A stretch of DNA of 61,747 nt, the filler included. It is 11 parts of 11 records of this genome, joined end to end, with 100 filler letters (N's around TTAATTAATTAA, not from the genome) between each part and the next. Parts side by side here need not be neighbours in the genome. Positions count along the whole stretch, not along the records: positions 25,439 to 29,355 come from SRR7504441_9863; 10 more parts are not named here. One strand, 5' to 3'. Below the pieces are notes generated by a model that was not told the origin of the DNA, made no database searches, and saw only the letters and a list, made by a program, of their open reading frames with translations. A program made the translations under genes and the position numbers. Positions 6,476-60,486 of this stretch are shown here, one piece after another (the first letter of the stretch is position 1; every line of letters begins with the position of its first letter).

Positions 6476-6575
6476 NNNNNNNNNNNNNNNNNNNNNNNNN
6501 NNNNNNNNNNNNNNNNNNNTTAATTAATTAANNNNNNNNNNNNNNNNNNNNNNNNNNNNNNNNNNNNNNNNNNNN
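6476..6575. other. Artificial contig spacer
   Basis: N-run + TTAATTAATTAA + N-run, 100 nt. Confidence 0.98.
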
Positions 6576-12963: not shown

Positions 12964-13063
12964 NNNNNNNNNNNNNNNNNNNNNNNNNNNNNNNNNNNNN
13001 NNNNNNNTTAATTAATTAANNNNNNNNNNNNNNNNNNNNNNNNNNNNNNNNNNNNNNNNNNNN
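12964..13063. other. Artificial contig spacer
   Basis: N-run + TTAATTAATTAA. Confidence 0.98.
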
Positions 13064-13729: not shown

Positions 13730-14056
13730 TCAGCTGATCACGCAGCAGCACCCGTCGTCCTTCTTCTTGCCCTCCTCCCTGCGCTTGGCGTCGGCCTTGA
13801 TCCTGGCTGACTTGCTCGTAGGCGTTTGCCTCGGACCGGGCAGCGACTTGCCCTCCGCCAGCGCCTGCTGCTCCCGCTCGGCGAACTCGCGCTCCTTCTC
13901 CTCGCGGGTTTCCTTGGACGGTGCCGTCCCGTCCTTGCACAGGGGCGGGTTGAGCGCTCGCTTGACGAACTTGTCCTTAATGCTGCTCTTCTTGGCCGTC
14001 TTCGGGGTCTGCTCCCCCCCGGACTCCTGCTCGGCTGCTGGCTCGGCGTCCGCCAT
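13730..14056 (-). CDS. Small charged protein with C-terminal CaaX prenylation motif
   Basis: 108 aa ending KKKDDGCCCVIS. Confidence 0.65.
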   Translation of the reverse strand: MADAEPAAEQESGGEQTPKTAKKSSIKDKFVKRALNPPLCKDGTAPSKETREEKEREFAEREQQALAEGKSLPGPRQTPTSKSARIKADAKRREEGKKKDDGCCCVIS

Positions 14057-14164
14057 CGCGCCGGCCTCAACTCAGGGCACAGGCAGTGCCCGTCCAAACA
14101 CTCGGAACGCTGCAAAAAAACAACGGCACCAGAGCCAGCAGCAGCCACAAACGTCGTCGGCATC

Positions 14165-17100
14165 ATGCGAAGAGTAGGCGTCGTCGGGACTGCATTCCTT
14201 GCGCTGGGTGTGCTGGGCTGGGCGGCGGAGCTGCTCGGGCCGCCGGTGGAGCAGCTCAACTGGACCAACTCGCATGGCGGCCCGATCGGCCATCCCGGCG
14301 ACCCCATCGAGCTAATACGCCCGGCCGCCCGCCCGCCGGCATCCAGCCCACCCTGGGCCGGCCGTACCCACCCGGCGGCCCCGGAGTTCGGGTACGCCGA
14401 GTCGGCCGGGTTCCTGCAGGCCGGGAACGACCTGGGCACGGTCAGCGTGAGCAGCGTATCCGAAGCGCTCGCCGCGTGCAGCGCGGCCATCATGTGCCGA
14501 GGGCTGACGTACCAGGGTGGACCTAACGGGACTATCAGCGGGCCGACCACCGTCTACCTCAAGAGCGGCACCGCCCGCTCCGGGGGCGCCCCCTGGGCCT
14601 CCTGGGTGAAGCAGGCCCCTGTGGGCCCGCCCAGCCAGCAGATCCAGTCAGCGGACGACAAGCTTGTGCTCGGGCTTCGGGCCGACTCGTTCACAGTCCA
14701 GTGGCTCAACCTGTCCAGCGGGGTCCCGCAGCGGGATAACTTCTCGTTCGTGCCCCCGCTCTCGCCGGGCTCAGCGCTCCCGCCTGTGCAGCACCTTGGA
14801 GATCTCAATCTCCGGGTCGGAGGCTCGGGTCAGTGGCGGTACTACAGCTCAGCCTGGGGCCCGTTCAGCGCAGCCGCCGCTCCGGTGCCGCTCCGGCCGG
14901 GCGAGTCGGCGGCGCACGACATCACGCCGCTGCTCCAGGCCACAGCCGACCAGCCGATTGGTCTGAGCGTGCGCCGCTCATACGGCCCGATGGGCGGGGC
15001 GGGTCTGGCAATGCAGTTCGAGCTCCGCAACACCGGGCCGGCGGCGGTGGAGGTGGGCGGGCTCGGGATGGCGGTCCCGGCGGCGGTGTCGCAGGACGTG
15101 CACATAGGCAGGGACCATGGGTGGGTCGAGTGGCTTCGAGTCCACGTGGACCAGCAGCTCCAGCTGGACCAAGAGTGCCTTGTGGCCACCCCTCTGCACC
15201 CGACCGGCGGCCTCGAGAACTTCCGGCCGATCTTCGAGTACGGCGGGGGCGGGTTTGAGTGGACTGTCCTCTCCAAGGCGTGGGCGGAGGAATGGGAACG
15301 GAACCAGCAGTGGCCGTACCTCTACATGAGCACAGAGCTCAACCAGACCGGTCTATGGCCCGACCCGCGCAGCCCGTGGCCGGCCTGGGGCGACGGCGGC
15401 CAGACGGTCCGGACCAGCATCGGGCCTGCCTCCCACTGGAATCCGCCCAGTTCCTGGGTCCTTGAGCCCGACCAGACCGAGATGTTTGGAATGCGGCTGT
15501 CGGGCTGCTCCGGGGGCCCGAGGACCCGCGACCAGGCGCTAGCGGCGGCCGGGGAGCCGGTGCTCCGGGCGGTGCCGGGGTACACGCTGAGCACGGCCAT
15601 GCGCTCGGCGGAGCTGTTTGTGACGTTGCCTGCCGGGCTCACTGTGACTACTGCCGTCTCGTTCCCGCCTGAGGTGCTCTCGATTGGACCGCTGAGCACC
15701 CGAGCCGGCGTGGCGGTGGTGCCGGTGGTCGGGTCGGCAGCCGGCCGGGCCAGGCTGGAGGTCAAGTTGAGTGACGGCACGGTGGCTGTGGCGCATTATC
15801 TCGTGCTGCCGCCTCTCGAGCAGCAAGTCTCGCTGGTGGCTCACCACTGGGCTGAGGTGGCCTGGCTGCCCAGGGAATTCAATGACCCTTTCGGCCGATC
15901 GGCCTCGGTGATGCCCTGGGATCGCGAGGACAAGCGGCACAGGCTGAACGACGGCAGAGCATACGGTACAAGCTGCACAAAGCCGGTGCTGAGCTGGGCT
16001 GTGCAGATGTCGGCCTGAGCGACGACGCTGGGGCGGCCAACCCGCTAGGGTTCGCGACTAGTCAGGCGTTCGCCCCGGAGCAGTCGACTGTGGCCCGGCT
16101 CGATGAGTACATAAGCAGCACGCTGTACGGCGTCAAGCCGGACACAGCGCACTGGCCGCTCAAGAGTCTGCAGCTTCCGGAGCCGAACAATGGGGTGCGG
16201 ATGACGCTCTTTTATTACAACCAGACCCACTTTCCGTACAACTATACCGAGCAGGCGGAGTGCGGGGTGGTGGCCGGGCTCAACTACAACTGGTGCATGA
16301 CCGAGGCCCAGGCCAACGCCACCTACCGTGGGTTCAACTACCCGCATCAGATCGCCACCTACTACGCCATGTGAGCCGGCCCGGTCTGCTGGCTGCTGAG
16401 CTGTGGGCAGGTATCGGGTCGCTCGGTGCTCTCTCGCTGGCCACCTGCGCCTGTGCTGAGCGGGCTGGCAGGAACCACCCGAGGATCAACGTGACCCAGA
16501 GCTGGGCCTGGTACCTCCAGCGGGCGGCCAACACAACCATCCGGCTCGGCTTTGCCAGGATCGGGTACATGGACGGCACCGTCACCCGTGAGGTTCTCCG
16601 CTCAGTGCTCGAAGAGGCGCAGGCCGATCCATCGTCGATCTGGACTTCGCTCGGCGCCAGGATCCTCGCCGGCGAGAGGGCGCGAGCCGAGTATTTCAGG
16701 ACGGCGCCCAACCCGTACGGGTCCGAGTTCTCGTACGACACCACGGGGCAGGAAGAGGTTGTGGTCTGGCTGCTTTATTTCGACTACGACGACGATGCGG
16801 CCCGGACTGTGAACCATATCCTACAGTACATGCGGAACTTGCCCAACTGGGCGTACAACGGCGGCGCCATCGCCACCGACGTGGCCAACGGCGGCAAGTG
16901 GTTGGTCTCGGCCGGGACGGGCCGGGGCGACTATGGCAAGATGCACTACCGGGCGGGGCTCAATCAGATCCCGTTGATCGAGTGGTACAGGCGGCACCCA
17001 GACGACCGGCAGACCCTCGAGATCGCTGTGGGCGCCATGAGCGGTCAGTTGTCTAATATCGACCAGACAGGGGCGCCGTCGATCTACTTCCACGCGTTTC

Positions 17101-17591
17101 CGCACGTGATGGAGCACGACGCGTACTCGGGCGACTATGGGCTAGGGTTCTTTGGGTCTTCGCTCGAGGCATCCGCCACGCTGGTGGTTGACCGGCAGCT
17201 CGGGCCGCTCTGCTACCTATGCGACTTAGCCGCCAGCAACCAAACCGGGGTTTACACGCTGATGCCGCGCGACGCGTACCACCAACGGGTGTATCTGGAG
17301 CCTCTTGGGCTTTTCGTGCAGGCCGACGCCGGGATTATCCAGTCAGTCTCACTCGATATGCCCCGATCAAGGATCACAGTCATCTTCGGGCCGCCTGATG
17401 CAACCCCGGCCCGGACCCGGAGCTACGACCTGCTGCGGCTGCGGGTGGACAAAGTGTCGTTGCCCGACGCAAAGAGGCCGGGCACTAATTTCTCGGTTGT
17501 GGCGCCGGGGGGTGTGACCAAGTCGCGGTCTGCGTTTGAGATACCTGGCTCTGACTCGGCTGTCTCGGTGAGCATTGCGTTCGATCAGTAA
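14165..17591 (+). CDS. Secreted DUF5695-like putative glycoside hydrolase (spliced)
   Basis: Signal peptide MRRVGVVGTAFLALG. Motifs HLGDLNLRV, DPFGRSASVMPWDRE, GLSDDAG, RGFNYPH, PYGSEFSYDTTGQEE, YSGDYGLGFFG across ORFs 13826, 16090 and 16260. Confidence 0.7.
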
Positions 17592-19792: not shown

Positions 19793-21282
19793 CTAAGGGA
19801 TGAGCCGGGCATCTGACTCAGTGGTCGTATTGGCCCAGTGCGCTGACCCAGGAGCCTGAGGAGTCGCAGGAGCCTGTCCCGCAGCGGCGCCCACTGTGTA
19901 ATCGGTGTATTGCTCAAGCAAGCTTGGCCGTCTGCCGCTATCCGGGGGCGACTGGTCCAGATCTAGCGGCGGCATCCCCTGAGCCAGTGTCGAGCCGCTC
20001 CGGCCTCTCTCAGTATGCAGCAGCGAACCTATAGCGCCAAAGAAGCCCTCGTGCTTGAAGAACAAGGGCTGGACTGCCTCGTCGCTCGTGCCGGGCGCGC
20101 TGAGCGTATTCCAACTGACAGGCCGAGTCAGATCCGGCCGGCCGGCCGGGGCACCTCTCATTCCATCGGGCCATCTGAGCCACAATCGTCTGGGTGCCGA
20201 TCGGATTGTGGCGGAGGAAGCCGCCTGTGAAGAATATGGTAGGCATCTTATGCATCTTGGCGTTGAGGTGGGCGATTTGGCAGACGTTCTGGGCCACCAT
20301 CTTGCACAGCGCCCTGCAGACGTCCTGCTTAGGGCAGTTCTCAGGATTACTCTGCGCTTTCCCAAAGAAGCATGCTGTCAGGTCGGCAGGCAGGACCTTC
20401 CCGCCTATCTCTAGGTCCTTGCCGTAAATATCGGCCACCCGCAGATTCACCTTGCCCGGCTCGCCCGCCGCTGCCAGCTCCATGGCCTCGTCAAACGACT
20501 CCACGCCGGTAAGCATCCGCGCTAGTCCGTAGAACGTCCCTCCCCCGAGCGCCGTCCCACTAACACGCACAAACTGACTTGGGGAGAGCACCTTGACGAT
20601 GCTAACGCCCGAGCCGATGTGGCACAGCAGGAACGGGAACAGCGCCGGGCCGTGCACAGGCACTGACAGCTCGCGCCAGTCACCAGGGCTCTGCTCGGAT
20701 AGAGTGAAGGTCTCGTTCTCGACAGACTGGACCATGAACGAGATCCCGGCGATCACAGTCCCAAGCTCGTCCTCCGGCACCAGTTGCACCTCCAGCGTAT
20801 CCGCCCACAGCTCCTTGTACTTGTGCGCGCCCCCCCCCGGTGGCGTAGATTTCAGTCAATCCCGCCTCGGGCCCGATCAGCCGGCCGCCGCGGGCCTGGT
20901 TCTCGAGCGAAATCATCTCGACCGCCTGCTCCATCCGGCCGGTCTCGAACGTGATGAAACTCATGGTGCTCCCAGAGTCTGGGCACACATGCTCCAGCTC
21001 CTTATGCCGGCGGCCAGTGGCCCCGTACTCCCTAGAGCTCCGTATGAACTCGGAGAGGGGCCGGGGCGAGGCGAACCCGCGGGGGCTGCCCGCTTCGGGC
21101 GGCCTCTCGATGAAGACGACCTTGGTGAGCGTGCCGCCGATATCGAATCCGAGGCAACTCACTAATTCGGGCACGGTCCAGCACTCTGAGCCGCTCCGAC
21201 TGAGGTCCGGCCTGAGACACGGGCTGGGCTTGGGGCTGCTCGCCGGCCCGGCCGGGTTCGCCTTGGGTTGCCGATTACCCAT
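19793..21282 (-). CDS. PANK: Type II (eukaryotic/Fumble) pantothenate kinase; apparent 1-nt frameshift in a G homopolymer
   Basis: DIGGTLTK, ATGGG, HIGSGVSIVKV, GTALGGGTFYGL, HEGFFGAIG motifs. Confidence 0.9.
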
Positions 21283-21561: not shown

Positions 21562-21661
21562 NNNNNNNNNNNNNNNNNNNNNNNNNNNNNNNNNNNNNNN
21601 NNNNNTTAATTAATTAANNNNNNNNNNNNNNNNNNNNNNNNNNNNNNNNNNNNNNNNNNNN
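21562..21661. other. Artificial contig spacer
   Basis: N-run + TTAATTAATTAA. Confidence 0.98.
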
Positions 21662-25338: not shown

Positions 25339-25438
25339 NNNNNNNNNNNNNNNNNNNNNNNNNNNNNNNNNNNNNNNNNNNNTTAATTAATTAANNNNNN
25401 NNNNNNNNNNNNNNNNNNNNNNNNNNNNNNNNNNNNNN
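25339..25438. other. Artificial contig spacer
   Basis: N-run + TTAATTAATTAA. Confidence 0.98.
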
Positions 25439-25629
25439 TAAAAGTTTAAGGTGAGTTATAACTCTATAACTTAGCAATATTGGAAGACCCCATAATTTGC
25501 CGTCCCGGCGCCGACAACCCCGACAAGCTCCAGCGCTGTAGGGCGTCCAGCGGCACCTGACGTGGGTCGGATCGTGTCAGAGGCAGTGTAGAGCGTGGCG
25601 GCCTGCCAGAGCTGATTGGGGCTGAGGCC

Positions 25630-28600
25630 ATGAAACTGTGGGTTCGGTACGGCGGGCTGCAGCCGACCAAGGTGCTCGTGGAGCCGGACGAGGACGTGGA
25701 CGCAGTCAAGGAGGCCGTGATTGCCAAGCTCGGGCTGACTCAGCTTGCAGCCGGCCTGCTCCTCCGGGCGGCCGACGGCCGGTCTCTCGACCCGATGCTC
25801 AGCCTGGCCGAGCAGCAGGTGCCGGAGGGCGCCCAGTGCACTCTCGAGCCCATCCAGCAGCCTGCCCCGCCCGAGGCTGGCGGATCGCCCGCACGGCCAC
25901 TCTCGCTAGCGGTCTTTTTCAGCGCGCCGCTGGTGGGCTGGAGCAAGCAAATGCCGGAGACCCCGCTAAGCCTTCTGGACTACAGAACCGAGCGCGAGCT
26001 GCTCATCGACTCGTTTGCGCACGCTGGCAAGGAGATCAGCCTGAGCTTCCACTTCGCGACCTCCAAAATGCTGCAACGGGCCCTGATGGAGGGCGCGACT
26101 GCACTGCACTACTCGGGCCACGGGAACAGCTCAGCCCTTGCGTTTGAGGACGGGAAGGGCTCGGTGCACATGCTCAACGTGCAGCAGCTGCGAGGCCTGT
26201 TCGAGAAGACTAAGGAGGGCGGGCGGCGTAAGGTACAGTTTGTGTTTGTGTCGGCGTGCTACTCGCTCGAGATCGGCCGGGCCTTTGTGGCAGCCGGGGT
26301 GCCTAGCGTGGTGGCCTGCAGCATGGACGACCGAGTTTCCGACACCGGAGCCCGCACGTTCGAGGATGCATTCTACGTCTCGCTGGCCCAAGGCGATACA
26401 GTGCTCAGGGCCTTCGAGATGGGCCAGCAGGCGGTCTCGACCTCCACATCGGCTGTGGCCCGTGAGGACACCAACAAGTTCTTCCTCCTCCCCGAGGTGA
26501 CCCCCCATCCCCCCTTCTGGGCCTACCCAGCCGGTGGCAGAATGCTGAGCATCTGCACTCGCGGTCGGTGTTTGGCAGCGCTAGGCTGCTTGACTGCAAG
26601 TGGTCGCTCTGGGAGGGATATCCTACTATTGGCTCAATTCCGCCTCCCATCGAGGGATTCCAGGGCCGCAACCTCGAACTGTTCACCGTGCTAGATCACT
26701 TGCACCGTGGCCGGTTTGTATCTGTAGTGGGAGGGCGCGGGATCGGCAAGCGAGCGCTGGTCACGGCGCTGGCCAATTACTGCTCTGAGCGGGAGCAATT
26801 CAGAGAAGGAGTGCTCTGGCTGGCAGCCAGCGGGATGCATAGCGTAGCGGAAGTGCATCAAGCGATAGCGCAGGCGGCCGGACGGGAGCCCGAGCTGCCT
26901 CCCGAGGGGCTTTTGGCCGGACTGCAGATACTGCTTGTTCTTGAAAGCTGCGATGGTCTGCATGCCTCGGCACGAAGCCAGTTTGGGAGGTTCCTCGAGG
27001 GCTTGATGCAGGAGCAGCAGCTCTCGATCGTGACCACAGCCTGCGAGCCGATCGGAATCCTTACTGACGTTGTCGAGAAGGTGCTGCTGCTAGACAAACT
27101 CTCTCCGGCAGATCAGGCAATCATGTTCAGTCGGAGAGCCCCTCGAAGGATTAGACCACAGGAAGTCGGGTGCAGCAGCCCGGCGCAGCTGTCTTCGTGG
27201 CTGAGTAACAACGCCAAGCTGATTCAGATGACCCCACGAGAGGTGGTACAAGCCACACGAGAGCTAGTCCAGAAGCCGCTCAGCCAAGTGCTCGGCCTGG
27301 CCAGTAGCAGTGTGCCCACCCACCCAACCGAGCTGCTAGAAGTGCGAAGATTCTACGAGGCCGAGTTGCCCACTGTAGGCGAGATTGTGGTAGTTGAAGT
27401 AACCTCGGTGACTGAGCTTGGGGTGTTTGGCAAGCTGCTTGAGTATGGGAACGCCTCGGGTGGTCACCACCGGCTGGCCGGGCCGATCCAGGGCAGGGAT
27501 CATTCTGCAGAAAGAAGTCAGCCGGCGACGGATGGATGAGGCAACGCATTTCAGAGTGGGCAAGAAGGAGTACGGCCCTATTGCTCCCCGCCAGTGCATA
27601 ACTGACTGATAGTTGGGTATAGTGGATTTTTTAAAATTTCGCGGCTACGCCGCTACGCTTGACGACGACTGTCAGGTATGTTCGTGTGATCAAGGTAGAC
27701 ACGAGATCCAACACAGTGGACCTGAGCAAGAGAAAGGTGCTGGCTGGCTGACTGGCTGTGGCAAATGGGGGGGCAGGTTAATCCAGCAGAGCGGGAGCAC
27801 GCCAAGCAGCAGTACCACAAGGGCCTGACAGTGCGCAGGATAGTTGAGATGGTTGGGTCGCAGTGCGGTATATCGGTGGCTGAGCTGTTTGAGCGAGCTG
27901 TCTGGCCTCTGCACCGAGCGCACGGGCATGCATACGATGCGTTCAAGCAGGAACTGTCGGATAGGGACAGTGTGCTCAGCGAACTCTCACTCCCGTTGTC
28001 GGTGCACGATGCGCTGTACGAGGCGATTCTAGTCGAGATGAGCCAAGCCCTTTCCAAGGTGGCACTCAGCACGCAGAGTCGAGTGCTCGATCTGTCGGCT
28101 TGGGGTCTCAAAGCACTGCCCCAGTGCTTTCTCGAGCTGCATGCACTGCGCACTTTGAACCTCGAATCGAATAAGCTGGTACGCCCTGCTTGCCAGCCCA
28201 AGCTGATTTGGGCCAAGGTCGGGCTGCCGACGAGCATTGGTAGCCTTAGCTTGCTGGAGGAGATCAACCTCAACAACAACAAACTCGAGGGCCTGCCTCA
28301 TACCCTGCCGGAACTGCGCAGTCTGCATCGGCTCTACCTGCACAGTGCTGTTCAAGGTTGTCATAAGGACGCAATTTCGATCATTCTGCGGTCAGCGCTC
28401 AGCTGCAGTGCCTGGTAGACGCTTGATGTGTGCTGGTGCAGCATGCCAGCGCTAGTCGAGCTCAACCTCTCTAACAATCAGCTTTTCGAGGACTCGGATC
28501 CCGAACCTGGTACGCAGCTGACTGCTGAGGTGGCTGACCATGGGCCAGGTCTACTGCCTCCCGAATTTGGGGCGTCACTTATGGCACTGGAGTCGCTTGG

Positions 28601-29199
28601 GATCAGTGGCAACTGCATAGAGACTCTGGAGCATTGTGGGTTTGAGCGGCTGGGCCGGCTCACGTTTCTGGACTTGAGTAGCAACCGAATCTCACAGGTA
28701 GAGTGCTGGTGGGCGATGGCGAGTGAATGGCAGGTGCCAGAGCTCTCGATGCTTCACCGGCTGAGCACGCTCAATATCAAGTCCAACACAATCATGGAGC
28801 TGCCGCCAGTGGACAGCTGGACCAGCCTGGAATCCTTGGTGTGCTCTTACAATCGTTTGGTTAGCCTGCCAACCCTGGCCCCGCTGTCTAGACTACAATA
28901 CCTCGACCTCAGTCACAATCTGCTTAGCATTCTTCCGAAGGTCGGACCGGGTTTGCCCCTGGACTGAGGGCTTCTGCTGACAGAATATTGGGCAATGCTC
29001 GTCTTTGACCGATTTGGTTCTTTCGGACAATCAACTGGAATCTCTTCCACTAGAGCTGGCCAACATTGCATCTCTCGAGCGGTGCTTGGTAAATGGGAAT
29101 CCGCTAGTGGCAGTTCCCTTAGAACTAGGTAAGATCATCAACGTTGATCGGGATTCGCTGACTGAGCTTAGCAAACAACTGAGTGCGACATTGTTTTAA
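25630..29199 (+). CDS. NLR-like protein: ubiquitin-like + CHAT protease + NB-ARC/STAND NTPase + integrated eIF2-alpha domains 1-2 + LRR
   Basis: LHYSGHG and VFVSACYS (CHAT His/Cys), GGRGIGKR and LLVLESCD (Walker A/B-like), RFYEAELP..LLEYGN..EVSRRR..VDLSKRKV..AYDAFK (eIF2-alpha), LxxLxLxxN repeats. Introns 26497-26540, 27460-27496, 27570-27675, 27737-27776, 28179-28217; later LRR introns not fully resolved. Confidence 0.85.
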
Positions 29200-29355
29200 G
29201 ATGACTAAAACTCAGTTGTGATATAATTAATTAAGCTATTATTAAGCTATCACAGGGTCGACAAGAAGGCGGCGACAAGGGCGCGCTTCATTGACAGAGG
29301 AGCGGGCAGTGCTTTAATCTAGTGTAGCTCTGAAACTGTCAGACGTATTAAATGA

Positions 29356-29455
29356 NNNNNNNNNNNNNNNNNNNNNNNNNNNNNNNNNNNNNNNNNNNNT
29401 TAATTAATTAANNNNNNNNNNNNNNNNNNNNNNNNNNNNNNNNNNNNNNNNNNNN
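29356..29455. other. Artificial contig spacer
   Basis: N-run + TTAATTAATTAA. Confidence 0.98.
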
Positions 29456-29643: not shown

Positions 29644-32600
29644 TTATTGCTCAGCATATGACTCCATGCACAGTCCGAACACCTGTGTGATGCATGGGTG
29701 ACTTTCTATGCGCTTTCAGGGAAGCCACCTTAATGCCGTTTGTGTAGCTGGCTCCGGGTACCTTCTCGCTGTCACCAAGCAAGTCGTCGGGACCTCCAAT
29801 CTGCACCGAATCATGTCACTCTGTAGCCACATGAGCTGCTAGACCGGAATGATGCACACTTCCTTGCCAGTCATTTCTTTCAGAATCACAGCAGCCGGAA
29901 TGGTGCCACCTGAGACCACACCAGCGTGAGTTGGGCTGGCTCAGAGACAAAGCGTCTCTAGATACAAGTGTACCTTCCCTGATCGCGTCCGGCCCCTCAC
30001 CATAAACTTCCGTAATGGCTGCACCAGCTGCCGCATAGATGGGCGCTGCCCTGTCGGCCATGAGAGGTGACACTGCAGCACACCAACATGCGTCATAATG
30101 ACCAGTGGCTCGAAGGCACCTTGCTGATCACAGACCACGTCTAGTGTGTTTGCGCTACCAAGCCCAGCAAACGCCTCTTCCAGGCACTTCTTGACACTTG
30201 CTTCAACAGCGCCGTGGTCAGATCCATGTGGGGTCCGGACGCCAAACGTGAAAGTCACACAGTTGGGCATCATGTAGGCGCACACATGCGAAACGGGCCC
30301 TGGAGTCGTCGAGCTTTCCACAGAAAGCAATGACAGAGAAGGATCCAGCCATCGGCTCTTCAAGAGCGCGCTCTGGTTATCAGCAGCAGCCTTTGCGATG
30401 CCAAGCTGTTTGCAGTATGTGTCGATGTCAAAAGCAACCTTCTCCGCATTTGCCACCTCAGCGGGATCAGTTTCAACCTGGAGCTCAGCAGTCAAGCTGC
30501 CTGTCGTCAGAGCACTCATGAGTGCAGCCGCCTCAGTCATGGCCTCGTGGACAGTGCCGCCAAATGAGCCAGAGTTCAGGTTCTGGCTACCTGCACTGAC
30601 TTTGACTGTAAAGTGCATCACTCCACGGAGTGCGTATGTCACACATGGCTTTTGGGCAGTCAGCCAGCTGCCGTCTGAAATGCAGATGGAGTCCACATCA
30701 CTCACAAATTCCTTGACCTTGCTCCCTGATGCAAGTGCACTGGAGCACGCACAGCCGGTGGTGTCGATCACAAGCTTGAGGTTCACAGGGAAAGCCTTGC
30801 CGAGCTTGACATACGCATCAGCAGTGCACATCCATGCCACAATCGGCCCCTTTGCATCTGAAGTGCCACATCCAAAGAGGTCTCCGCCTGCCTTTGTCAG
30901 GATGTAATCCCCACCCTCCTCAGTGTCCAGGTGCCCGTATACACACAGAGTCTTGGTTGCGGCGTCTGTCTCTGGGGCACGGAAGCACACTCCAATCAGA
31001 CCGTCATCTAGACTCACGACCTCGATCGGAGTGTCTGAAGAGCTCTGAAGCTTTGTGGCTTGGTCCTTAACAAGCCCAAGCGCACTGCTCTCGTTAGAGC
31101 CAGTCTTGGTCTCGAGCTTGACGTAATCTGCCAGCACCTTGACGTAGTCATCCTGGTGCTCATCCACATACTCGAGGAACTGCCGCTTGGGGTCGCTAAA
31201 CGAGAAAGTCACCTCCGCTGTGCACTGGCCTCCGGAGTTGCTCAGCACCACTGTGCTTGTGCTTTCGGTGTTGTACAGATCCATATTTCCCACCACGCCC
31301 ACGATCTTGCCATCCTCAGCCAGGGAGAGCCCCTCAGGCAACGATTCGCACGTGAAGGTGCCCTTGCCCTCGAACGTGGGTTCAAACTCGACTTGCGAGG
31401 CCATCAGGATGTTGAGCTTGTTACCGTTCGGATATTCGAGCCCGGACGGTGGCACTTCAAGCACGGCAACCGCGAGCTCTGTGCTCACTGAGCCGCCTGT
31501 GTTGGTCGCCGTCACTGTGTGAGTAGATTCGCCCACAGCAGACGAGTCTGGCACTCCAGTCACACTGCCAGTCGCACTGTCGAAGCTCAGCCCGCTGGGC
31601 AGTGCTGGTTCGATGCTGAAAGTCACTGGGGTTGCTGGCTCCACAGTCGGAGCACCGCCACCCTCCTCGATCCCAACCTCCGCAATGGCCTTGATCGCAC
31701 CCTCATAGCTGATGCTAGTGGGCGGTGCATCGACGATGATGATATCGACTTTGCATGTCTGCTCGCCACCGCTGTTGGCCAGCTTCAATGTAGTGGTGGC
31801 CTTCTCGACCGGGGCCACTGGTGTGCCTGAGATCACCCCAGTGGCAGGGTCGAGCGTGATGCCCTCTGGAAGCGGATTGGCCGAAGTCTCACTGAACGCG
31901 CTGAACACTCCCAAGCAGCCCTCTGGGGCCACCATGGGCTTGGTAGAGAACTCTTCGCCCACTGTCAGGCTGAGAGTCTCGCAAAGCAAACTAGTGGGCG
32001 GCGCATGCACCACTTGCACTGAGATCTCCGTCGACACCTCCCCGCCAGAATTCCACGCACTCACTGTGTGTTTGGTGCTCTTCGGCTCAAGAATCTCGTC
32101 GTAGCTCTCGGCGGTGCCGCTGATCAGTCCAGTCTCGGGGTCGAAAGTAAGGCCAGGGTGCAGCTCCGGCTCGATTTTGAGCGTGACCTTGGTATCAGCC
32201 GGCGCGACGGTCGGGGCGACTGAAGTGCCATCGGCGCCGACAGTGAAAACGGCACTCTCGGCCTCAAATGTGATGCTGGTCGGGGGCACCTCTTGCACCA
32301 TGATGTTGACAACACACTCAATGAACCCGGCACTGTTCTCGCAAGTGACAGTGAAGTCTGTTGCAGGGCAGCAGCCCTCGTTAGTTGGGCAGCCGCTGAT
32401 CGCGCCAGTCTCATCGTCCAGTGTCATCCCGGCCGGCAGTTCCGGCTCACAGTCGAAGGTCAGGTTCTCGACCCCATCAGGCGTGATTGTAGGCAGCATA
32501 ACCTCGAGCTGCTGCCCTGGCGCAAACACCCACGGAGTGCCAGCATACTCCATGGTCTCCGGCTCCACGTCAAAGCACTCGTTGTCGAACGCGTCCTTCA

Positions 32601-33870
32601 CGTTCTTGAGGTAGAGCACCAGCGACACCTGGCCCAGGCACTCAGCCCGAGCCTCTCCAGCTGCGGCCGACCTCGTCGAGCGCCCCACTAACCACGTCCT
32701 GAGCGTCAATCAGCTGCTCGACCTCGTACTCCTTTTCCAAGAAATCAAACGCTGCTTGGCACGCAGCGAGCGGGTCGCTCTGCCCGCTGACTGAGCCCGC
32801 GCTTGGCCGGGCACTCACCCCTCGCAGGCTGTCAATGTCGAAAGAGCCCTCGCGCTGGCTCTCGACCAGGGCTTCGAACGGGACGCCCGGCATCACACCC
32901 GGGGTCGGGTCGACGATGTCGATCTCGTACCCGAACTTCTTGATCCGTTTGTTGAACCATTTGAGGATCAGCTTGGACGAGCGAGGCAGGTCATACCTGG
33001 CTCCGGGGCTCAGCCTGGGCCAGAAGGCGCACAGTCACGTTGTGATCAGCCGCCAGATGAACGAGATGACCAGCTTGACCCGGCCATCCAGGAAATCTTT
33101 GGCGATAATCCCCTGGTGCGGGATCTTCAGCTTGTCGATCGCCTGCGCCGGGTCAGGCCCGTGCCGGCCAGCTAGCGTCAGTGATGGGCTGGATGCCTTG
33201 AAACAGATGTTCAGATTGTCCAGCCAAAGCGCCGTGTACCGCGCATTGTTCTTCACTCGCACCTTGAGCCCAGGCTCCAGCGTTTCGAGCACCTGACCCA
33301 CGCCTGATCGGCCGGGGCCGCCCGGATCCGCACCCGCGCCAGAGTGATCCCGGTCTTGAGCGACTCGATCAGATCCTCGACCGGCTCGAGCCCTGCTCCC
33401 ACGGCTCCCATCAGACCGGCGCCCGGCCGGCGGGGGCAGCGCACCGGCCTTTTTGAGCTTCATGTTGCACCACTTGGTACACACCCTGAGCGACACGTCG
33501 ACTGGCCCGCCGAGTGAGCCCGCGGCCAGCCGGCGGACGCACGGTCGGTGCCCGAAGTTCCGACGCTCCGCATCACCTGCCCCGCGCTGTCGGTCACCAC
33601 CCGCGCGACGCCCGAGCGACAGCGGCGCCGGCCGGGTTGGGCAGGTGAAACAGGCTCGCCAGCCTGGGGAGGTGGGGGGCGGGCAGGCCGGGCCGGTGGG
33701 CGGGCGGGCAGCGGACCGTAAAGTTGTCGGTCTTCATGATCTCGCCATCCACGGGCTTGAAACGCGACACCTGCCTCGCCCGTGACCCCACAGCCGAGAC
33801 AGCAAGCAGGCGGGCGGCTGTCGATAGCAGCGGCACACAAGCCGGAACGGCCGGGGGCGGGAGGCACCAT
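29644..33870 (-). CDS. Tandem calponin-homology domains + about 5 He_PIG-type Ig repeats + degenerate M20 (CNDP2-like) dipeptidase
   Basis: TKWCNMKL..DLIESLKTGITL..FIWRLI and LKWFN..AFDFLEKEYEVEQLIDAQD (CH1/CH2). LPxGL(S/T)xDxxTGxISGxP repeats. CVYGHLD, GTSDAKGP, PVNLK, ISD, YALRG, REGGTIP (CNDP2-like). Confidence 0.8.
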
Positions 33871-37040: not shown

Positions 37041-37140
37041 NNNNNNNNNNNNNNNNNNNNNNNNNNNNNNNNNNNNNNNNNNNNTTAATTAATTAANNNN
37101 NNNNNNNNNNNNNNNNNNNNNNNNNNNNNNNNNNNNNNNN
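37041..37140. other. Artificial contig spacer
   Basis: N-run + TTAATTAATTAA. Confidence 0.98.
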
Positions 37141-37303: not shown

Positions 37304-38908
37304 TCATGCATCAGACCCCGCCCACTTCCGCCACACAAGTGTTAGGTAAGGTGCGGGCCGCGGAGGGCTCTCAAGCCGGCCGTGCAAGTTGCACGGCGTC
37401 AATTCGCCTGGGCTATTCGGCCGGCTTTCCCTCAAGTCCTCCATAAGCTGATTAATCTGGCGGAGCACTGGCGACCCGTACGCTTTCCCGTGCAGCCACT
37501 CGAAAGCATTCGGCACCCCAGCATCCCGCTCACCCAGCGAGTCTACAGATGCTGGCTCCGCAGTCGGCGGCTTGATAACCTTGCACTCCTCTTCTGTTTG
37601 GTGTAATAGGTGCTCGTGTAGTAATGTCGGAGCGCTAAACAGCCCTCCGACCACGGCGGCGCACACCCCCGGGGCAGCCGCTCCGGACCGGTCCTCCTGT
37701 TGCTGCGCCAATCGATTCTCGTGCTGCTGAGCCACTAGATATCGCACCCGCGTCTTGTCGGGCCGCTGCTTGCACGGCCGCTCCCGCCGCTCCCGCCGCT
37801 CCTTCTTGGCTCTCTCGGCCCCGCCCAACGCGGCTTGCACAGCTGCCGCTGGAGTATGCCAGCCCGCCCGTCGTTCCTGCCAGCTGCTGAGCCGCACCTG
37901 TCGCGCGTGCTCTAGGCTTGAGAGCGCGGCCGCGTATCGCACGATGCTCGTTTTAGGCAGAGGATGGCGACCCGAGCTGGCCAGTTCCGGTCCCTGTATG
38001 ACATCTGCTCTGAGCTTAGCCTCCAGGGCGTCGAATGCAGCCACGGCCGCCTCCACCTCCGCAGAGGTAGGCTCATCCTTGACCATCACCGCAGCAAGAG
38101 CGTCTACTGGCCCAGAGTCCCACCCAGCCGCCGTCAGCGCTGCAGAGGCCTCCTTTGCAGTGTCGCGCGCAGTGGCTTGCTCGGCCTCCACCTGCGCTAC
38201 AGCCTTCGCCCTGGCTGCCTCCTGTGCAGCGGCCCGCTCACGTTCTGCCTCCTTCTCCTCAGCAGCGGCCTTCAACCGCGCCGTCTCCTCATCTTCAGCA
38301 GCCTTCACTCTGGCTGCCGCCGCCGCAGCAGCCGCCCTCTTCCTAGCTGCCTCCTCAGCCGCCTTGAGCCGCGCTGCTCCCTCCGCCGCAGCCTTCACAC
38401 GTGCTGCCTCCTCCGCGGCGGCCTTCACACTTGCCGTCTCCTTCTCCTCGGCAGCCTCCAGACGCACTGCATCGGCCTTCGCCCTGGCAGCCGCGGTGTC
38501 TTTGTACAGGTCACGCAGAAGCAGCGCCTTCTCCGCCTCCCCAGCGGCCCTCACTCGCGCTGCTTCCTCCTCGGCGGCTTCCAGCTTGACTGCCTCCGCC
38601 TCCTCAGCGGCCTTCAGCCTGGCCTCCGCCTCCTCGGTGGCCTTCAGCCGCAGCATCTCATGCACCACCTTGGCCTCCTCCACCAGGTCCGCACTAAGCT
38701 GCAGCAGTGAAGGCGCCTCCTGCCTGTGCAGCCGCTCGTTGCCTAACCACTCATCGTGCTGCTGCATCTTGTTCATCACGCGAACCGTCTGATCCCGCCA
38801 GTCCGCCGACCCCCCGTCACCAGCAGCCGAGTGCATGGGCTGCCGCATCTTGTAGATGTATGTGTACCCAAGTGCGGGTGCGCTGCCCTTCATCAGACTG
38901 ACAGACAT
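37304..38908 (-). CDS. Ala/Glu/Lys-rich low-complexity helical protein
   Basis: Long ORF with repeated KAAEEEAAR-like units at about 38150-38650. Confidence 0.55.
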   Translation of the reverse strand: MSVSLMKGSAPALGYTYIYKMRQPMHSAAGDGGSADWRDQTVRVMNKMQQHDEWLGNERLHRQEAPSLLQLSADLVEEAKVVHEMLRLKATEEAEARLKAAEEAEAVKLEAAEEEAARVRAAGEAEKALLLRDLYKDTAAARAKADAVRLEAAEEKETASVKAAAEEAARVKAAAEGAARLKAAEEAARKRAAAAAAAARVKAAEDEETARLKAAAEEKEAERERAAAQEAARAKAVAQVEAEQATARDTAKEASAALTAAGWDSGPVDALAAVMVKDEPTSAEVEAAVAAFDALEAKLRADVIQGPELASSGRHPLPKTSIVRYAAALSSLEHARQVRLSSWQERRAGWHTPAAAVQAALGGAERAKKERRERRERPCKQRPDKTRVRYLVAQQHENRLAQQQEDRSGAAAPGVCAAVVGGLFSAPTLLHEHLLHQTEEECKVIKPPTAEPASVDSLGERDAGVPNAFEWLHGKAYGSPVLRQINQLMEDLRESRPNSPGELTPCNLHGRLESPPRPAPYLTLVWRKWAGSDA

Positions 38909-38965
38909 GGAATCATAACGGTTATATCCCACCGGCAGCCCACCGGCAGCCCACCACGTTCAGTG

Positions 38966-40489
38966 ATGAGGAGGCAGGTTGTATTCGGCGTGCTGATCGG
39001 GGTCGCTGCCGCCTCCTGGCCGCTCTCTCGGGGCACCGCCACCGGCGCCGGGCCCGACGGGCGAGTGCTGGACGTCCGACAGTTCGGCGCAGTGGGTGAC
39101 GGCGCCACTGACTGCACCGGCCCCATCAGTCAGGCCCTGGCGGCGGCGCACGCGGGCCCGGCCACGGTGCGGATCCCCGCGCCCGGGGTCTACCTCACTG
39201 GGCCGCTACTGATCAACCACACCGACGGGCTCACCCTGGAGATCCAGACCGGGGCCACTCTGCGATCCCTCGGCTGGGCGCACGCCCTCGCAGGCCACTG
39301 GCCGACCGCAACCGACATTGAGCGCTGGAACCAGACCGGCCGGGCTGGGCTGGACTACGCGCCAGTGCTTTGGCTGCAGTCAGTCCACAACGTGCTCCTC
39401 ACCGGCGGTGGCGTGCTCGACGGCGTGGGCGAGAGCGGTTGGTGGCAGAGTGCGCTCCGTCCGCCCGCGGCTGGCTTTGTCAGCTGCCCCCTGCCGAGCT
39501 GCCCGCACTGCGTCGAGTCGTGCCCGGCCCGGCCGCGGCTGTTGCTGGTCAAGGACGCGAGCCTGGTGAGCCTGGTTGGGCTGGAGCTTCGGCATAGCCC
39601 GTTCTGGACACTGCACCTGTTCAATTCGACCGACGTAGAGGTTTCCAGAGTCAGAATACGCAATCCGTCCGGGCTGCCGCACGGCCAAGAGCCGTTTGTG
39701 CGTGATTGGGGGTATGGGCCGAACGCCGACGGGATCGATGTCGAGCACAGCCAGCGCGTGCTGATTGACAGCTGCGACATTGAGTGTGGAGATGACGCGA
39801 TCTGTCTCAAGGCCGGGTTCGGGCCTTCGGCTCTGCCTGGCACCAGCGAGGTGCTTGGAGTGAACAATTCGATTTTCACCTCCTGCCCGCACGTGGTCAT
39901 GAGCAACAACGGCACTCCCGGGTTTGCCCCTCCGAGCATGCACCGCAATGATGGCTGTGGCGGGATCAAGCTCGGGTACGGCACCTTCAGTGGGATCAGC
40001 GACGTCCGGATGGAAAGGAACGTCATCAAATACGCGGGGCAGGCGATCAAGATCACCGGCCACCTCGGGATGGGTGGGCCTATCAGGAATGTGAGCTTCT
40101 TCGACAACAAGGTTGTGCGCGCAGGGCTGGCTGTCAATGTGGACCTGGCGGTGAGTCATCCGACCCCCGGGGTGGGGCCAAGCGGAACGCGGACCGACCC
40201 TGGACTGCTGAGCACAGTGGATGGGCTGTCGATCGTGCGACTGAGTGCAGCCGGCAGTGTTGGGTGCTATAATAACGTCACGGAGGGTGCATACTGCGGA
40301 GGCGCCGGGTGCTTGCTCGGCAGCGAGCTGGCCGCGCTCAGGAACGTCAGGCTCGAGGATGTCAATATCAGCTCGAGTGGAGGCCAATCGGTCGGCTGGA
40401 GCTGCGCCGATGTGACCCCGAATGCTGTTGGAGTGCAGCCTGCCAGCTGTGTGCCCGCTGGGATCGATTTCGTTTGCAGCCAAACATGA
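38966..40489 (+). CDS. Secreted glycoside hydrolase family 28 (polygalacturonase-like), intronless
   Basis: Signal peptide; FGAVGDG, YLTGPL, SPFWTLH, PNADGID, GDDAICLK motifs. Confidence 0.85.
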   Translation: MRRQVVFGVLIGVAAASWPLSRGTATGAGPDGRVLDVRQFGAVGDGATDCTGPISQALAAAHAGPATVRIPAPGVYLTGPLLINHTDGLTLEIQTGATLRSLGWAHALAGHWPTATDIERWNQTGRAGLDYAPVLWLQSVHNVLLTGGGVLDGVGESGWWQSALRPPAAGFVSCPLPSCPHCVESCPARPRLLLVKDASLVSLVGLELRHSPFWTLHLFNSTDVEVSRVRIRNPSGLPHGQEPFVRDWGYGPNADGIDVEHSQRVLIDSCDIECGDDAICLKAGFGPSALPGTSEVLGVNNSIFTSCPHVVMSNNGTPGFAPPSMHRNDGCGGIKLGYGTFSGISDVRMERNVIKYAGQAIKITGHLGMGGPIRNVSFFDNKVVRAGLAVNVDLAVSHPTPGVGPSGTRTDPGLLSTVDGLSIVRLSAAGSVGCYNNVTEGAYCGGAGCLLGSELAALRNVRLEDVNISSSGGQSVGWSCADVTPNAVGVQPASCVPAGIDFVCSQT

Positions 40490-40683: not shown

Positions 40684-40783
40684 NNNNNNNNNNNNNNNNN
40701 NNNNNNNNNNNNNNNNNNNNNNNNNNNTTAATTAATTAANNNNNNNNNNNNNNNNNNNNNNNNNNNNNNNNNNNNNNNNNNNN
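40684..40783. other. Artificial contig spacer
   Basis: N-run + TTAATTAATTAA. Confidence 0.98.
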
Positions 40784-44213: not shown

Positions 44214-44313
44214 NNNNNNNNNNNNNNNNNNNNNNNNNNNNNNNNNNNNNNNNNNNNTTAATTAATTAANNNNNNNNNNNNNNNNNNNNNNNNNNNNNNN
44301 NNNNNNNNNNNNN
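44214..44313. other. Artificial contig spacer
   Basis: N-run + TTAATTAATTAA. Confidence 0.98.
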
Positions 44314-51043: not shown

Positions 51044-51143
51044 NNNNNNNNNNNNNNNNNNNNNNNNNNNNNNNNNNNNNNNNNNNNTTAATTAATTAAN
51101 NNNNNNNNNNNNNNNNNNNNNNNNNNNNNNNNNNNNNNNNNNN
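51044..51143. other. Artificial contig spacer
   Basis: N-run + TTAATTAATTAA. Confidence 0.98.
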
Positions 51144-57883: not shown

Positions 57884-57983
57884 NNNNNNNNNNNNNNNNN
57901 NNNNNNNNNNNNNNNNNNNNNNNNNNNTTAATTAATTAANNNNNNNNNNNNNNNNNNNNNNNNNNNNNNNNNNNNNNNNNNNN
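57884..57983. other. Artificial contig spacer
   Basis: N-run + TTAATTAATTAA. Confidence 0.98.
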
Positions 57984-59136: not shown

Positions 59137-60393
59137 TTACTTTTTCTTTTTCTTGTCTTTCTTGCCGGATTTGCCAATCTTGACACCTTGCCATCGGCAA
59201 TGGGGCAGCGATGCGAATTGTTTGTCTAACGCCAGATCTGGGCTGCACTCACGGATGTCCACCTGGCTCAGTGACCGGTTCTCGGCCATGCCCTTGGGCA
59301 GCGTCTCCAGCAGCGGATTAAAAGCGACCTGGAACTCCTTGAGATTCCTGAAGGCCCCAAAGGTCATCGGCACCGCCTTGAGATCGTTATGCGACAGATA
59401 CAGCTCCTCCAGCCCCTCCCAGCACGCCATCCGTGGCGGGACCGACCGCAGCCTGTTGTTGGCTGCCGAAAACTTTCTCATCTGCTTCAAGTCGCCAAAC
59501 TCGGGCGGAAGCGTCGTGAACTGGTTCTTGTGCAGAAACAGCTCCTCCAGCTGGGTCAGCTGGGCCATTAGTGCGAGCGGCTCCACGTCGTCCCGTTTGT
59601 TAATTAAATTATTCTGCCCGAGGTAGAGGAACTTGAGGCTCTGTAGCTGGGCAAACTCTGGCGGGAGGCTCTTGATGCAGTTGTCGTTCAGGTTGAGCTC
59701 CTCGAGTAGCACCAGATTCCCGATCTCGGCCGGCAGCTCGTTGATTCCGTTGCAGGCCAAGTTGATGTGCTTGCACGCCCTCCAGCTGCCTATGCTCGCA
59801 GGTACCATGATCAGCTTGTTGGCCCGGGCGTCCATGTGCTCCATCATGGCCCACTGGGCGTCCGGCAGCGCCACGATCTCGTTGTGCATCAGCTTGAGTT
59901 CGCGCAGCAGGTGGCATTCGGCAAGCGAGTCCGGGAAGTTGCTCACGCCGTTCCGCGAAAAGTCGATAAATTTGAGCAGTTTGAGCTGTCCAACGGTGGG
60001 CGGCAGGCCCGAGAGCAGGTTGCGCTGCAGGTACAGCTCCTCCAGCTTGGTGAGGTTGCCCAGTCGGTCGTCGAGCCCCGCGAGCTGGTTGCGTGACAGG
60101 TCCAGCTTCTGGAGAGTGGCGCAGCTGTAGATCGACTCCGGGAGCCCGGTCAGGTTGTTCACGGCCAGGTCTATCCACTCGCACTCGGGCAGACTCCCGA
60201 TCTCCTCTGGGAGCTCGTTCAGCCGCTTGTCCCGCAGGGAGAGGTGGGTCTTGCCCTTCTCGGCGGTCCTCTCCAGTTTGAGCTGGATCTTCTCGTTCTT
60301 CATCTTGTCCAGCTGCCCGCGCACCTCGTCCGCGTACGCCTCCATCTCCGGGGTCATCGGCTCCACCTTGGCCGGCTTGCCCTTCTTCCCCAT
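59137..60393 (-). CDS. Leucine-rich repeat protein (SHOC2/LRRC-like), intronless
   Basis: Continuous 23-aa LPxEIGxLxxLxxLxLxxN repeats with basic termini. Confidence 0.85.
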   Translation of the reverse strand: MGKKGKPAKVEPMTPEMEAYADEVRGQLDKMKNEKIQLKLERTAEKGKTHLSLRDKRLNELPEEIGSLPECEWIDLAVNNLTGLPESIYSCATLQKLDLSRNQLAGLDDRLGNLTKLEELYLQRNLLSGLPPTVGQLKLLKFIDFSRNGVSNFPDSLAECHLLRELKLMHNEIVALPDAQWAMMEHMDARANKLIMVPASIGSWRACKHINLACNGINELPAEIGNLVLLEELNLNDNCIKSLPPEFAQLQSLKFLYLGQNNLINKRDDVEPLALMAQLTQLEELFLHKNQFTTLPPEFGDLKQMRKFSAANNRLRSVPPRMACWEGLEELYLSHNDLKAVPMTFGAFRNLKEFQVAFNPLLETLPKGMAENRSLSQVDIRECSPDLALDKQFASLPHCRWQGVKIGKSGKKDKKKKK

Positions 60394-60486
60394 CCCCCTT
60401 CCTACTTGTACTTACCGGCGCCCACCTCTGCTACAACTCCATTTTTGGCGCGTTGTCCGTTGCGTGTGCTCGCCGGACGGGTGGTC

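Follow-up and report, generated by a model that had tools for sequence, protein, structure and literature searches.

An eIF2α-like domain embedded in an NLR-like gene with a predicted CHAT protease from a marine eukaryote

Phosphorylation of eIF2α is the hub through which translation is controlled in antiviral and stress responses, and truncated eIF2α look-alikes were, to our knowledge, previously known only as viral weapons (K3, vIF2α). What, then, is an eIF2α look-alike doing in a cellular gene? The question is raised by positions 27348-28046 of a 61,747-nucleotide (nt) stretch of DNA made of 11 joined contigs (hereafter the window). The gene of interest lies on contig SRR7504441_9863 (3,917 bases, window 25439-29355). 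An earlier note on this DNA had called the segment an eIF2α copy; rather than standing alone, it forms an internal domain of a single, far larger and multidomain nuclear gene of a marine eukaryote. The domain order in the gene model is CHAT caspase-like protease, P-loop nucleoside triphosphatase (NTPase), N-terminal half of eIF2α (S1 and helical domains), and leucine-rich repeats (LRRs).

Half of eIF2α inside a larger gene

The spliced product of 27348-28046 comprises 172 residues (about residues 557–733 of the full gene model) and is collinear with eIF2α all the way from the first strand through the helical domain. It shares 37–43% identity with canonical eIF2α in all seven proteins tried (blastp, E 1e-40 to 2e-23), and its Smith-Waterman score of 320 compares with 33.8 ± 6.0 (maximum 64) in 200 shuffles. 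The last exon (27777-28415) matches Pfam EIF_2_alpha at 27.8 bits (cut-off 22.8), covering only positions 2–53 of the 114-position profile; canonical P0006, retrieved in the same search as the relatives described below, fits positions 1–114. Among PDB sequences, the helical exon matches yeast eIF2α residues 97–159 (E 1.6e-6). Because the profile match stops at 53/114 and LRRs follow in the same exon, the C-terminal domain (domain 3) is absent, and the similarity does end with the helical domain, as the earlier note had it. In eIF2α the C-terminal domain binds eIF2γ; without it, the look-alike is unable to bind eIF2γ or to join the eIF2 complex, and on this established ground the note's deduction holds. 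Feature by feature, the S1 domain, the helical domain and the Ser51 loop of canonical eIF2α are present, and the C-terminal α/β domain and the KGYID motif are not.

The first part of the S1 domain (27348-27459, plus strand, like the rest of the gene) is followed by an intron of 37 nt (27460-27496, phase 1). The second part (27497-27569) contains QKEVSRRR, with the Ser51 codon, AGC, at 27520-27522 and Lys at the Ser48 position; then comes MDEATHF, which replaces the IRSI..KLI stretch that follows Arg54 and is one residue shorter. Beyond an intron of 106 nt (27570-27675, phase 2), the third part (27676-27736) carries SNTVD (27707-27721) in place of KGYID, and then LSKRK. A phase 0 intron of 40 nt (27737-27776), spliced out in RNA, precedes the helical domain (27777-28046; WPLHRAHGHAYDAF core), which stops where canonical eIF2α enters its C-terminal domain. 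The introns are all GT..AG. The intron positions that the earlier note had given (27460, 27570 and 27737, each a GT) are correct to the base, and its EVSRRR, the Lys and SNTVD are likewise in place; the introns end in AG at 27496, 27675 and 27776.

In the best full model, the gene is split into ten exons and runs for 1,038 codons between an ATG at 25630 and a stop codon at 29197-29199, with the frame open throughout. Exon 1 (25630-26496) starts at the ATG and matches Pfam CHAT (PF12770) at 44.6 bits (cut-off 24, E 1.7e-11). Its CHAT domain has the motifs HYSGHG (His) and VSACYS (Cys), which we take to be the putative catalytic His/Cys dyad. The first ~75 residues, ahead of CHAT (25630-25850), match a redesigned ubiquitin weakly (E 0.1) and no Pfam family; they may form a ubiquitin-like N-terminal domain. 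The CHAT exon is joined to the NTPase exon across a predicted GT..AG intron of 44 nt (26497-26540), the top candidate in an enumeration of frame-compatible GT..AG pairs; its size class and GGCAG acceptor match those of the verified introns. The P-loop NTPase region (26541-27347) is weakly STAND-like and has a Walker A motif, GGRGIGKR, and a Walker B-like LLVLES. Downstream of the helical domain, a short linker and the LRR domain extend over 28047-29199, and translations of three exons score above the cut-offs of Pfam LRR_8, LRR_4 and LRR_1. Two introns in this part are verified by RNA (28510-28548 and 28941-28983), two are predicted (28179-28217 and 28699-28734), and a further one is ambiguous (28350-28418 or 28391-28441). 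One exon is shared by the NTPase and the start of S1, another by the helical domain and the first LRR. The introns of the gene are very short (36–44 nt, plus the one of 106), and several end in GGCAG; their size might help to place the organism.

The gene is real: it is transcribed and spliced. Parts of it occur at 100% identity in contigs from marine libraries, namely three RNA runs and one DNA run from separate studies. The runs holding gene sequence are marine or seawater samples with small shares (≤0.13 of words), and for uncovered parts of the gene the absence of reads is uninformative. RNA contigs lie over the NTPase region at 26649-26891 and 27167-27419, also at 100% identity, and the latter, from run X1, crosses the NTPase/S1 boundary. 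Three introns are removed in RNA contigs (four contigs, two of the three RNA runs). For one of them the removal is visible as a joint, in both runs, and for the other two it follows from loose ends; the third RNA run covers exon only. The joint, 28938|28982 (cut +2), skips intron 28941-28983 in RNA runs X1 and X10, which belong to two studies, and the DNA run (X2) is unspliced across the same intron. An X10 contig on 27775-27923 has a 15-nt loose end identical to 27720-27734, a sequence unique in the window; intron 27737-27776 has therefore been removed. An X1 contig with a loose end identical to 28493-28508 shows the removal of intron 28510-28548. The other two introns of the eIF2α-like segment, 27460-27496 and 27570-27675, are supported by gap-free collinearity with the transcript-derived relative P0002; a contig of the DNA run (27404-27602) retains the first of them.

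Relatives, constraint and surface residues

An exhaustive HMMER scan of a protein library with the helical exon returned 132 proteins (E ≤ 0.001), the six best of which are not ordinary eIF2α. P0002, a protein of 454 residues from a EukProt Trinity transcriptome with precomputed PF07541 and PF00575 assignments, is identical to the window model at 244 of 444 positions (55%, E 1e-164). The alignment has no gaps at the three splice junctions and runs collinearly through the NTPase, the S1 domain, the helical domain and the start of the LRRs. P0003 consists of the helical domain and then the same first LRR; P0001, P0004, P0005 and P0007 cover less. P0002 aligns with yeast eIF2α residues 4–180 (E 2e-31) and Pfam S1 (31.2 bits, cut-off 22). 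In its AlphaFold model, 10-residue blocks over residues 241–400 have a mean predicted local distance difference test (pLDDT) score of 96–98, except for a value of 80 in the block of the Ser loop, in which the serine is residue 281; the NTPase part is of low confidence (pLDDT 50–78). Foldseek searches with this model return structures of the eIF2α N-terminal domain first, among them 1q46 (template modeling score 0.92, root-mean-square deviation 1.3 Å) and the PKR-eIF2α complex 2a19_A (E 2e-17).

The tree comprises 117 rows, after omission of 15 rows with <85 aligned residues (including P0003 and P0004) and of the repeat protein P0031. The window protein, P0002, P0001 and P0005 form one clade with a support of 0.99, and P0007 joins at 0.83; the stem leading to the family is long, at 0.52 substitutions per site. 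This topology points to a single origin for the family, which has at least five distinct members. P0031 (1,288 residues, highly repetitive, no aligned stretch) is a spurious eIF2α match.

We gauged constraint by protein identity per domain, a weaker substitute for the codon-based ratio of nonsynonymous to synonymous substitution rates (dN/dS). Between the window protein and P0002, identity is 59/87 (69%) in S1, 74/127 (58%) in the NTPase core, 42/75 (56%) in the rest of the NTPase region, 48/90 (54%) in the helical domain and 0/11 in the linker before S1. By this measure, the eIF2α-derived part appears to be at least as constrained as the adjoining NTPase. The earlier note had envisaged that the segment might evolve neutrally; S1 is instead the best conserved part, next to a linker with no identical residue.

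Other searches gave little. Longer homologs were sought with the 90-residue helical exon and with the NTPase exon, and none was found. Five loci in metagenome contigs gave matches that were both short and weak (on re-check, the best reached E 7.5e-4 and spanned 24 residues), and we rejected them as spurious. PADLOC returned no match for the CHAT and NTPase parts of the window protein and a weak mad8 match (E 3e-4) for P0002. Residues 428–454 of P0002 are translated sequencing adapter and poly-A. A word search with P0002 gave 473 matches, and the 119 listed besides itself cover 4–28% of the query, many at 90–100% identity; we take them as uninformative because they are driven by this tail. Between the NTPase core and S1, P0002 residues 168–211 have a sub-threshold match to DUF7645 (23 bits, cut-off 27), which did not appear with the window protein.

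Which features of eIF2α has the family kept? Forty-nine columns are at least 75% conserved in 28 canonical proteins, and the window protein keeps 38 of them. The 11 changes are Y32F, V33G, E42S, M44I, R56D, S57E, K79S, G80N, Y81T and two at helical positions. Of 94 non-family sequences, 85 have Tyr81 and 84 have Gly80, versus none and one, respectively, of five family members; Asp83 is kept in all five members. Ser51 is retained in both family members that cover it, and it occurs in 31 of 38 long canonical sequences, with Thr in four more. Glu49, Arg52 and Arg53 are likewise kept in the two members that cover them. Loss of KGYID together with retention of Ser51, Glu49, Arg52 and Arg53 is the reverse of K3L, which bears out the central observation of the earlier note.

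These changes fall on surfaces of known function. In one report, the KGYID motif is an interface for kinases, eIF2Bα and uS11, and two isoleucines after Ser51 contact eIF2Bδ (10.1101/501411); with IRSI..KLI replaced, these isoleucines are gone. Another describes M44A, K79A and Y81A as impairing both phosphorylation by PERK and PPP1R15A-dependent dephosphorylation, and D83A as blocking all phosphorylation (PMC8500838). The fold core and the immediate Ser loop are thus retained, and the docking surfaces of all known partners have been rewritten. The rewritten residues are themselves common to the family, and such family-wide conservation of a remodeled surface points to a specific partner.

Integrated decoy and alternative readings

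What is transcribed, spliced and conserved in relatives is an eIF2α domain fused to an NTPase and LRRs. We favor, with a probability of about 0.5, the reading that this domain does the sensing, as an integrated sensor or decoy, in an NLR-like switch with a CHAT protease output. Host eIF2α would be what a pathogen factor, most likely a viral one, has evolved to bind or modify; the same factor would also engage the look-alike domain, and this engagement would lift the autoinhibition exerted by the LRRs. Oligomerization of the NTPase would then bring CHAT proteases together, and the clustered proteases would cleave substrates so that the cell is killed or arrested. Because the KGY(I)D patch, Met44/Tyr32 and IRSI..KLI are replaced, no competition for host kinases, phosphatase or eIF2B would be expected. 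CHAT is described as a caspase-related death effector, and STAND NTPases as sensors that oligomerize on ligand binding (PMC10197012, PMC10907252). That eIF2α is a viral target comes from published work (10.1101/501411, PMC13712846, PMC8500838; PDB 9nb9), and PDB 9nb9 has viral DP71L solved with the phosphorylated eIF2α N-terminal domain and PP1. More tentatively, and with less than even odds, the protein may be a protist 'tripwire' that guards the eIF2α node, such that a viral factor seizing or modifying eIF2α would trigger suicide via the CHAT protease. The tripwire itself would be a folded half of eIF2α with the Ser51 loop kept and the host-partner and ribosome surfaces stripped, placed between NTPase and LRRs.

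The earlier note had proposed a tuned bait with the Ser51 surface still on display. With CHAT, a P-loop NTPase and LRRs in one gene, the bait idea is put on more concrete ground. That Ser51 is still presented to kinases or PP1 is doubtful, in conflict with the data on docking-residue mutants (PMC8500838).

Several points weigh against an integrated decoy. The surfaces used by the known partners (kinases, the PPP1R15 phosphatase, eIF2Bα/δ and uS11) are the very ones that have changed; a pathogen factor using those surfaces would therefore miss the bait, and the ligand must recognize some other feature. The first LRR, far from being variable, shows high conservation. Only two family sequences cover the Ser51 region. 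A scan of viral contigs with the family alignment found no relative, and none of the matches in metagenome contigs is sound. Across the predicted CHAT-NTPase intron, 26497-26540, there is no RNA contig. 'NLR-like' rests on architecture and weak similarity, because the NTPase lies below all Pfam cut-offs (AAA_16 24.9 bits, cut-off 32.6; nSTAND1 17.8, cut-off 27.1; NB-ARC 16.2, cut-off 23.5; NACHT 13.8, cut-off 26.7) and has no match below E 0.1 among PDB sequences. It is the architecture that appears NLR-like, rather than the protein being a proven STAND protein; the nearest Atlas feature clusters to the NTPase in a language-model feature search are NB-ARC/STAND (best 0.88), which is a lead only. 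The Walker A motif (about 26686-26709) reads G-x-x-G-x-G-K-R in both the window protein and P0002, with Arg in place of the usual Ser/Thr after Lys, and an NTPase with GKR instead of GK[ST] may bind nucleotide without normal hydrolysis. Ligand binding, activation and protease activity of the protein are all predicted.

Alternatively, the domain may have no outside ligand at all. It could be an exapted structural or regulatory module, captured long ago, that packs or links the NTPase against the LRRs in the manner of the helical/winged-helix subdomain of other STAND proteins, with the serine incidental. Loss of the canonical interaction surfaces with the fold core kept (38 of 49 columns) is consistent with such a role, as is conservation of the remodeled residues in the family, which an intramolecular interface would also produce; the introns do not mark domain boundaries, which suggests an old, consolidated fusion. 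S1, however, is the most conserved part of the protein, beyond the needs of a linker, and the surface residues E-x-S-R-R of the Ser51 loop are retained. The arrangement of the domains is not confidently predicted (pLDDT of 50–78 in the NTPase). We consider this reading unlikely.

Changes at K79, G80, Y81, M44 and Y32, and in the residues following Arg54, bear directly on another proposal, in which the protein is a stress-coupled death switch. A host eIF2α kinase (e.g. GCN2, PERK-like) would phosphorylate the retained serine under a high integrated stress response, and the phosphorylated domain would turn on NTPase and CHAT; it would thus serve as a substrate sensor and not as bait for a pathogen. 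Retention of Ser51, Glu49, Arg52 and Arg53 in 2/2 covering members and of Asp83 in 5/5 is in line with this proposal. The serine, moreover, is predicted to lie in an exposed, lower-confidence loop (residue 281 of the P0002 model, pLDDT 80), as in canonical eIF2α. Yet KGYID is described as the kinase interface (10.1101/501411), and K79A, Y81A and M44A each impair phosphorylation by PERK (PMC8500838); we consider such a switch improbable.

Might the S1 barrel, an OB-fold, bind viral or aberrant RNA as the ligand-binding part of the sensor? P0002 scores as a Pfam S1 RNA-binding domain (31.2 bits against a cut-off of 22), and Foldseek also matches bacterial S1 domains, although far below eIF2α. 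By far the closest relatives are eIF2α rather than RNA-binding S1 proteins, and the attached helical domain is eIF2α-specific. Both family members that cover position 56 have Asp there in place of Arg56, which in eIF2α presumably makes contact with mRNA during initiation. We regard an RNA sensor as quite improbable.

An artifact or dead gene (chimeric assembly, pseudogene or neutral exon-shuffling relic) has a negligible chance of being correct: the contig is only 3.9 kb, within a chain of artificially linked contigs, and library searches yielded fragments of relatives, of which P0002 with its 454 residues is the longest, and none of full length, but the frame is open over about 1,040 codons, three RNA runs and one DNA run from separate studies match at 100% identity with the RNA contigs spliced, and the independent transcriptome protein P0002 (55% identity) has an identical domain order.

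The window as a whole is a concatenated draft or binned assembly of small separate contigs, joined by ten identical artificial linkers (44 N, TTAATTAATTAA, 44 N) at 6476-6575, 12964-13063, 21562-21661, 25339-25438, 29356-29455, 37041-37140, 40684-40783, 44214-44313, 51044-51143 and 57884-57983. For this reason, genes across the linkers are not the genomic context of the finding. Rfam and tRNA scans of the window gave no match, and a tblastn search of it with the full model found no paralog, the only match being an unrelated LRR gene (59203-60276). This other LRR protein (59137-60408, minus strand, on a different contig; LRR_8 118 bits) resembles the gene of interest in its repeats only, at 26–29% identity. 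Further unrelated genes on other contigs are a split DUF5695 gene (13811-17588, plus strand), a pantothenate kinase (Fumble) exon (20010-20852, minus strand), a 921-residue open frame with He_PIG Ig-like repeats (29941-32706, minus strand) and a glycosyl hydrolase 28/beta-helix protein (38747-40486, plus strand). An Atlas search with the pantothenate kinase exon returned generic eukaryotic clusters only.

Comparison with known systems

Plant NLRs with integrated domains (NLR-IDs) include RGA5 or Pik-1 with HMA and RRS1 with WRKY. Like them, the window protein would be an NTPase and LRR receptor with an extra domain from a pathogen-targeted host protein, joined to a death-signaling N-terminus. 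Here, in contrast, the extra domain is from the translation factor eIF2α (S1 and helical) and sits between NTPase and LRRs, the predicted effector is a CHAT protease rather than CC/TIR, the NTPase is below the NB-ARC threshold and the organism is a marine protist. For plant NLRs, the 'integrated decoy' hypothesis has been put forward (PMC4246468). A search of open-access papers and bioRxiv turned up none that describes an NLR-like or STAND protein with an eIF2α domain in it; the relevant hits on eIF2α look-alikes deal with viral K3/vIF2α.

Death-inducing sensors with a built-in substrate or bait for pathogen enzymes are also found in mammals as the NLRP1 and CARD8 'tripwires', and NLRP1B is described as an integrated decoy (PMC13037943). 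There the bait to be degraded is a disordered linker or N-terminus, whereas in the window protein it would be a folded copy of a defined host protein; their output is CARD-caspase-1, whereas a fused CHAT protease effector is predicted here. Bacterial and fungal STAND and conflict systems likewise combine, on one protein or within one system, an N-terminal caspase-related CHAT effector with a P-loop switch and a repeat sensor (PMC10907252, PMC10197012). In the available text of these two papers, however, the sensors mentioned by name comprise a C-type lectin fold and WD40 repeats carried by a neighboring peptidase, and no translation-factor domain is among them.

Compared with canonical eIF2α, the domain keeps Ser51, Glu49, Arg52–54 and Asp83 at 37–43% identity over S1 and the helical domain, but it is embedded in another protein, lacks the C-terminal domain, has K79, G80, Y81, M44, Y32, R56 and S57 replaced and is one residue shorter after the Ser loop. 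Poxvirus K3 (K3L) and ranavirus vIF2α are, like it, truncated S1-fold look-alikes of eIF2α that are unable to join eIF2. K3 is without the phospho-acceptor serine. It keeps KGYID and binds PKR (10.1101/501411, PMC13712846). The window domain, in contrast, keeps the serine, loses K79-G80-Y81 and also carries the helical domain; it is cellular, intron-containing and fused into a large protein, with no relative in the viral contigs scanned.

If the decoy reading is true, attack on eIF2α would be an old, general strategy of protist pathogens, sensing by integrated decoy would have an origin outside plants and animals as well, and the domain could serve as a handle to fish out the factor, probably viral, in marine plankton. 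On the tripwire reading, no translation factor would have been made into an integrated decoy before this one, and protists would have invented the decoy strategy known from plants and mammals independently. Even as a structural module only, the domain would show a core translation factor reused in an unusual way. With at least five distinct members and expression in the sea, the family is open to study. Here it is a cell that carries the eIF2α look-alike, in a configuration opposite to K3 and in a protein built like an innate-immune death switch; by analogy, this protein would work like a plant NLR-ID or an NLRP1-type decoy, and look like an inverted K3.

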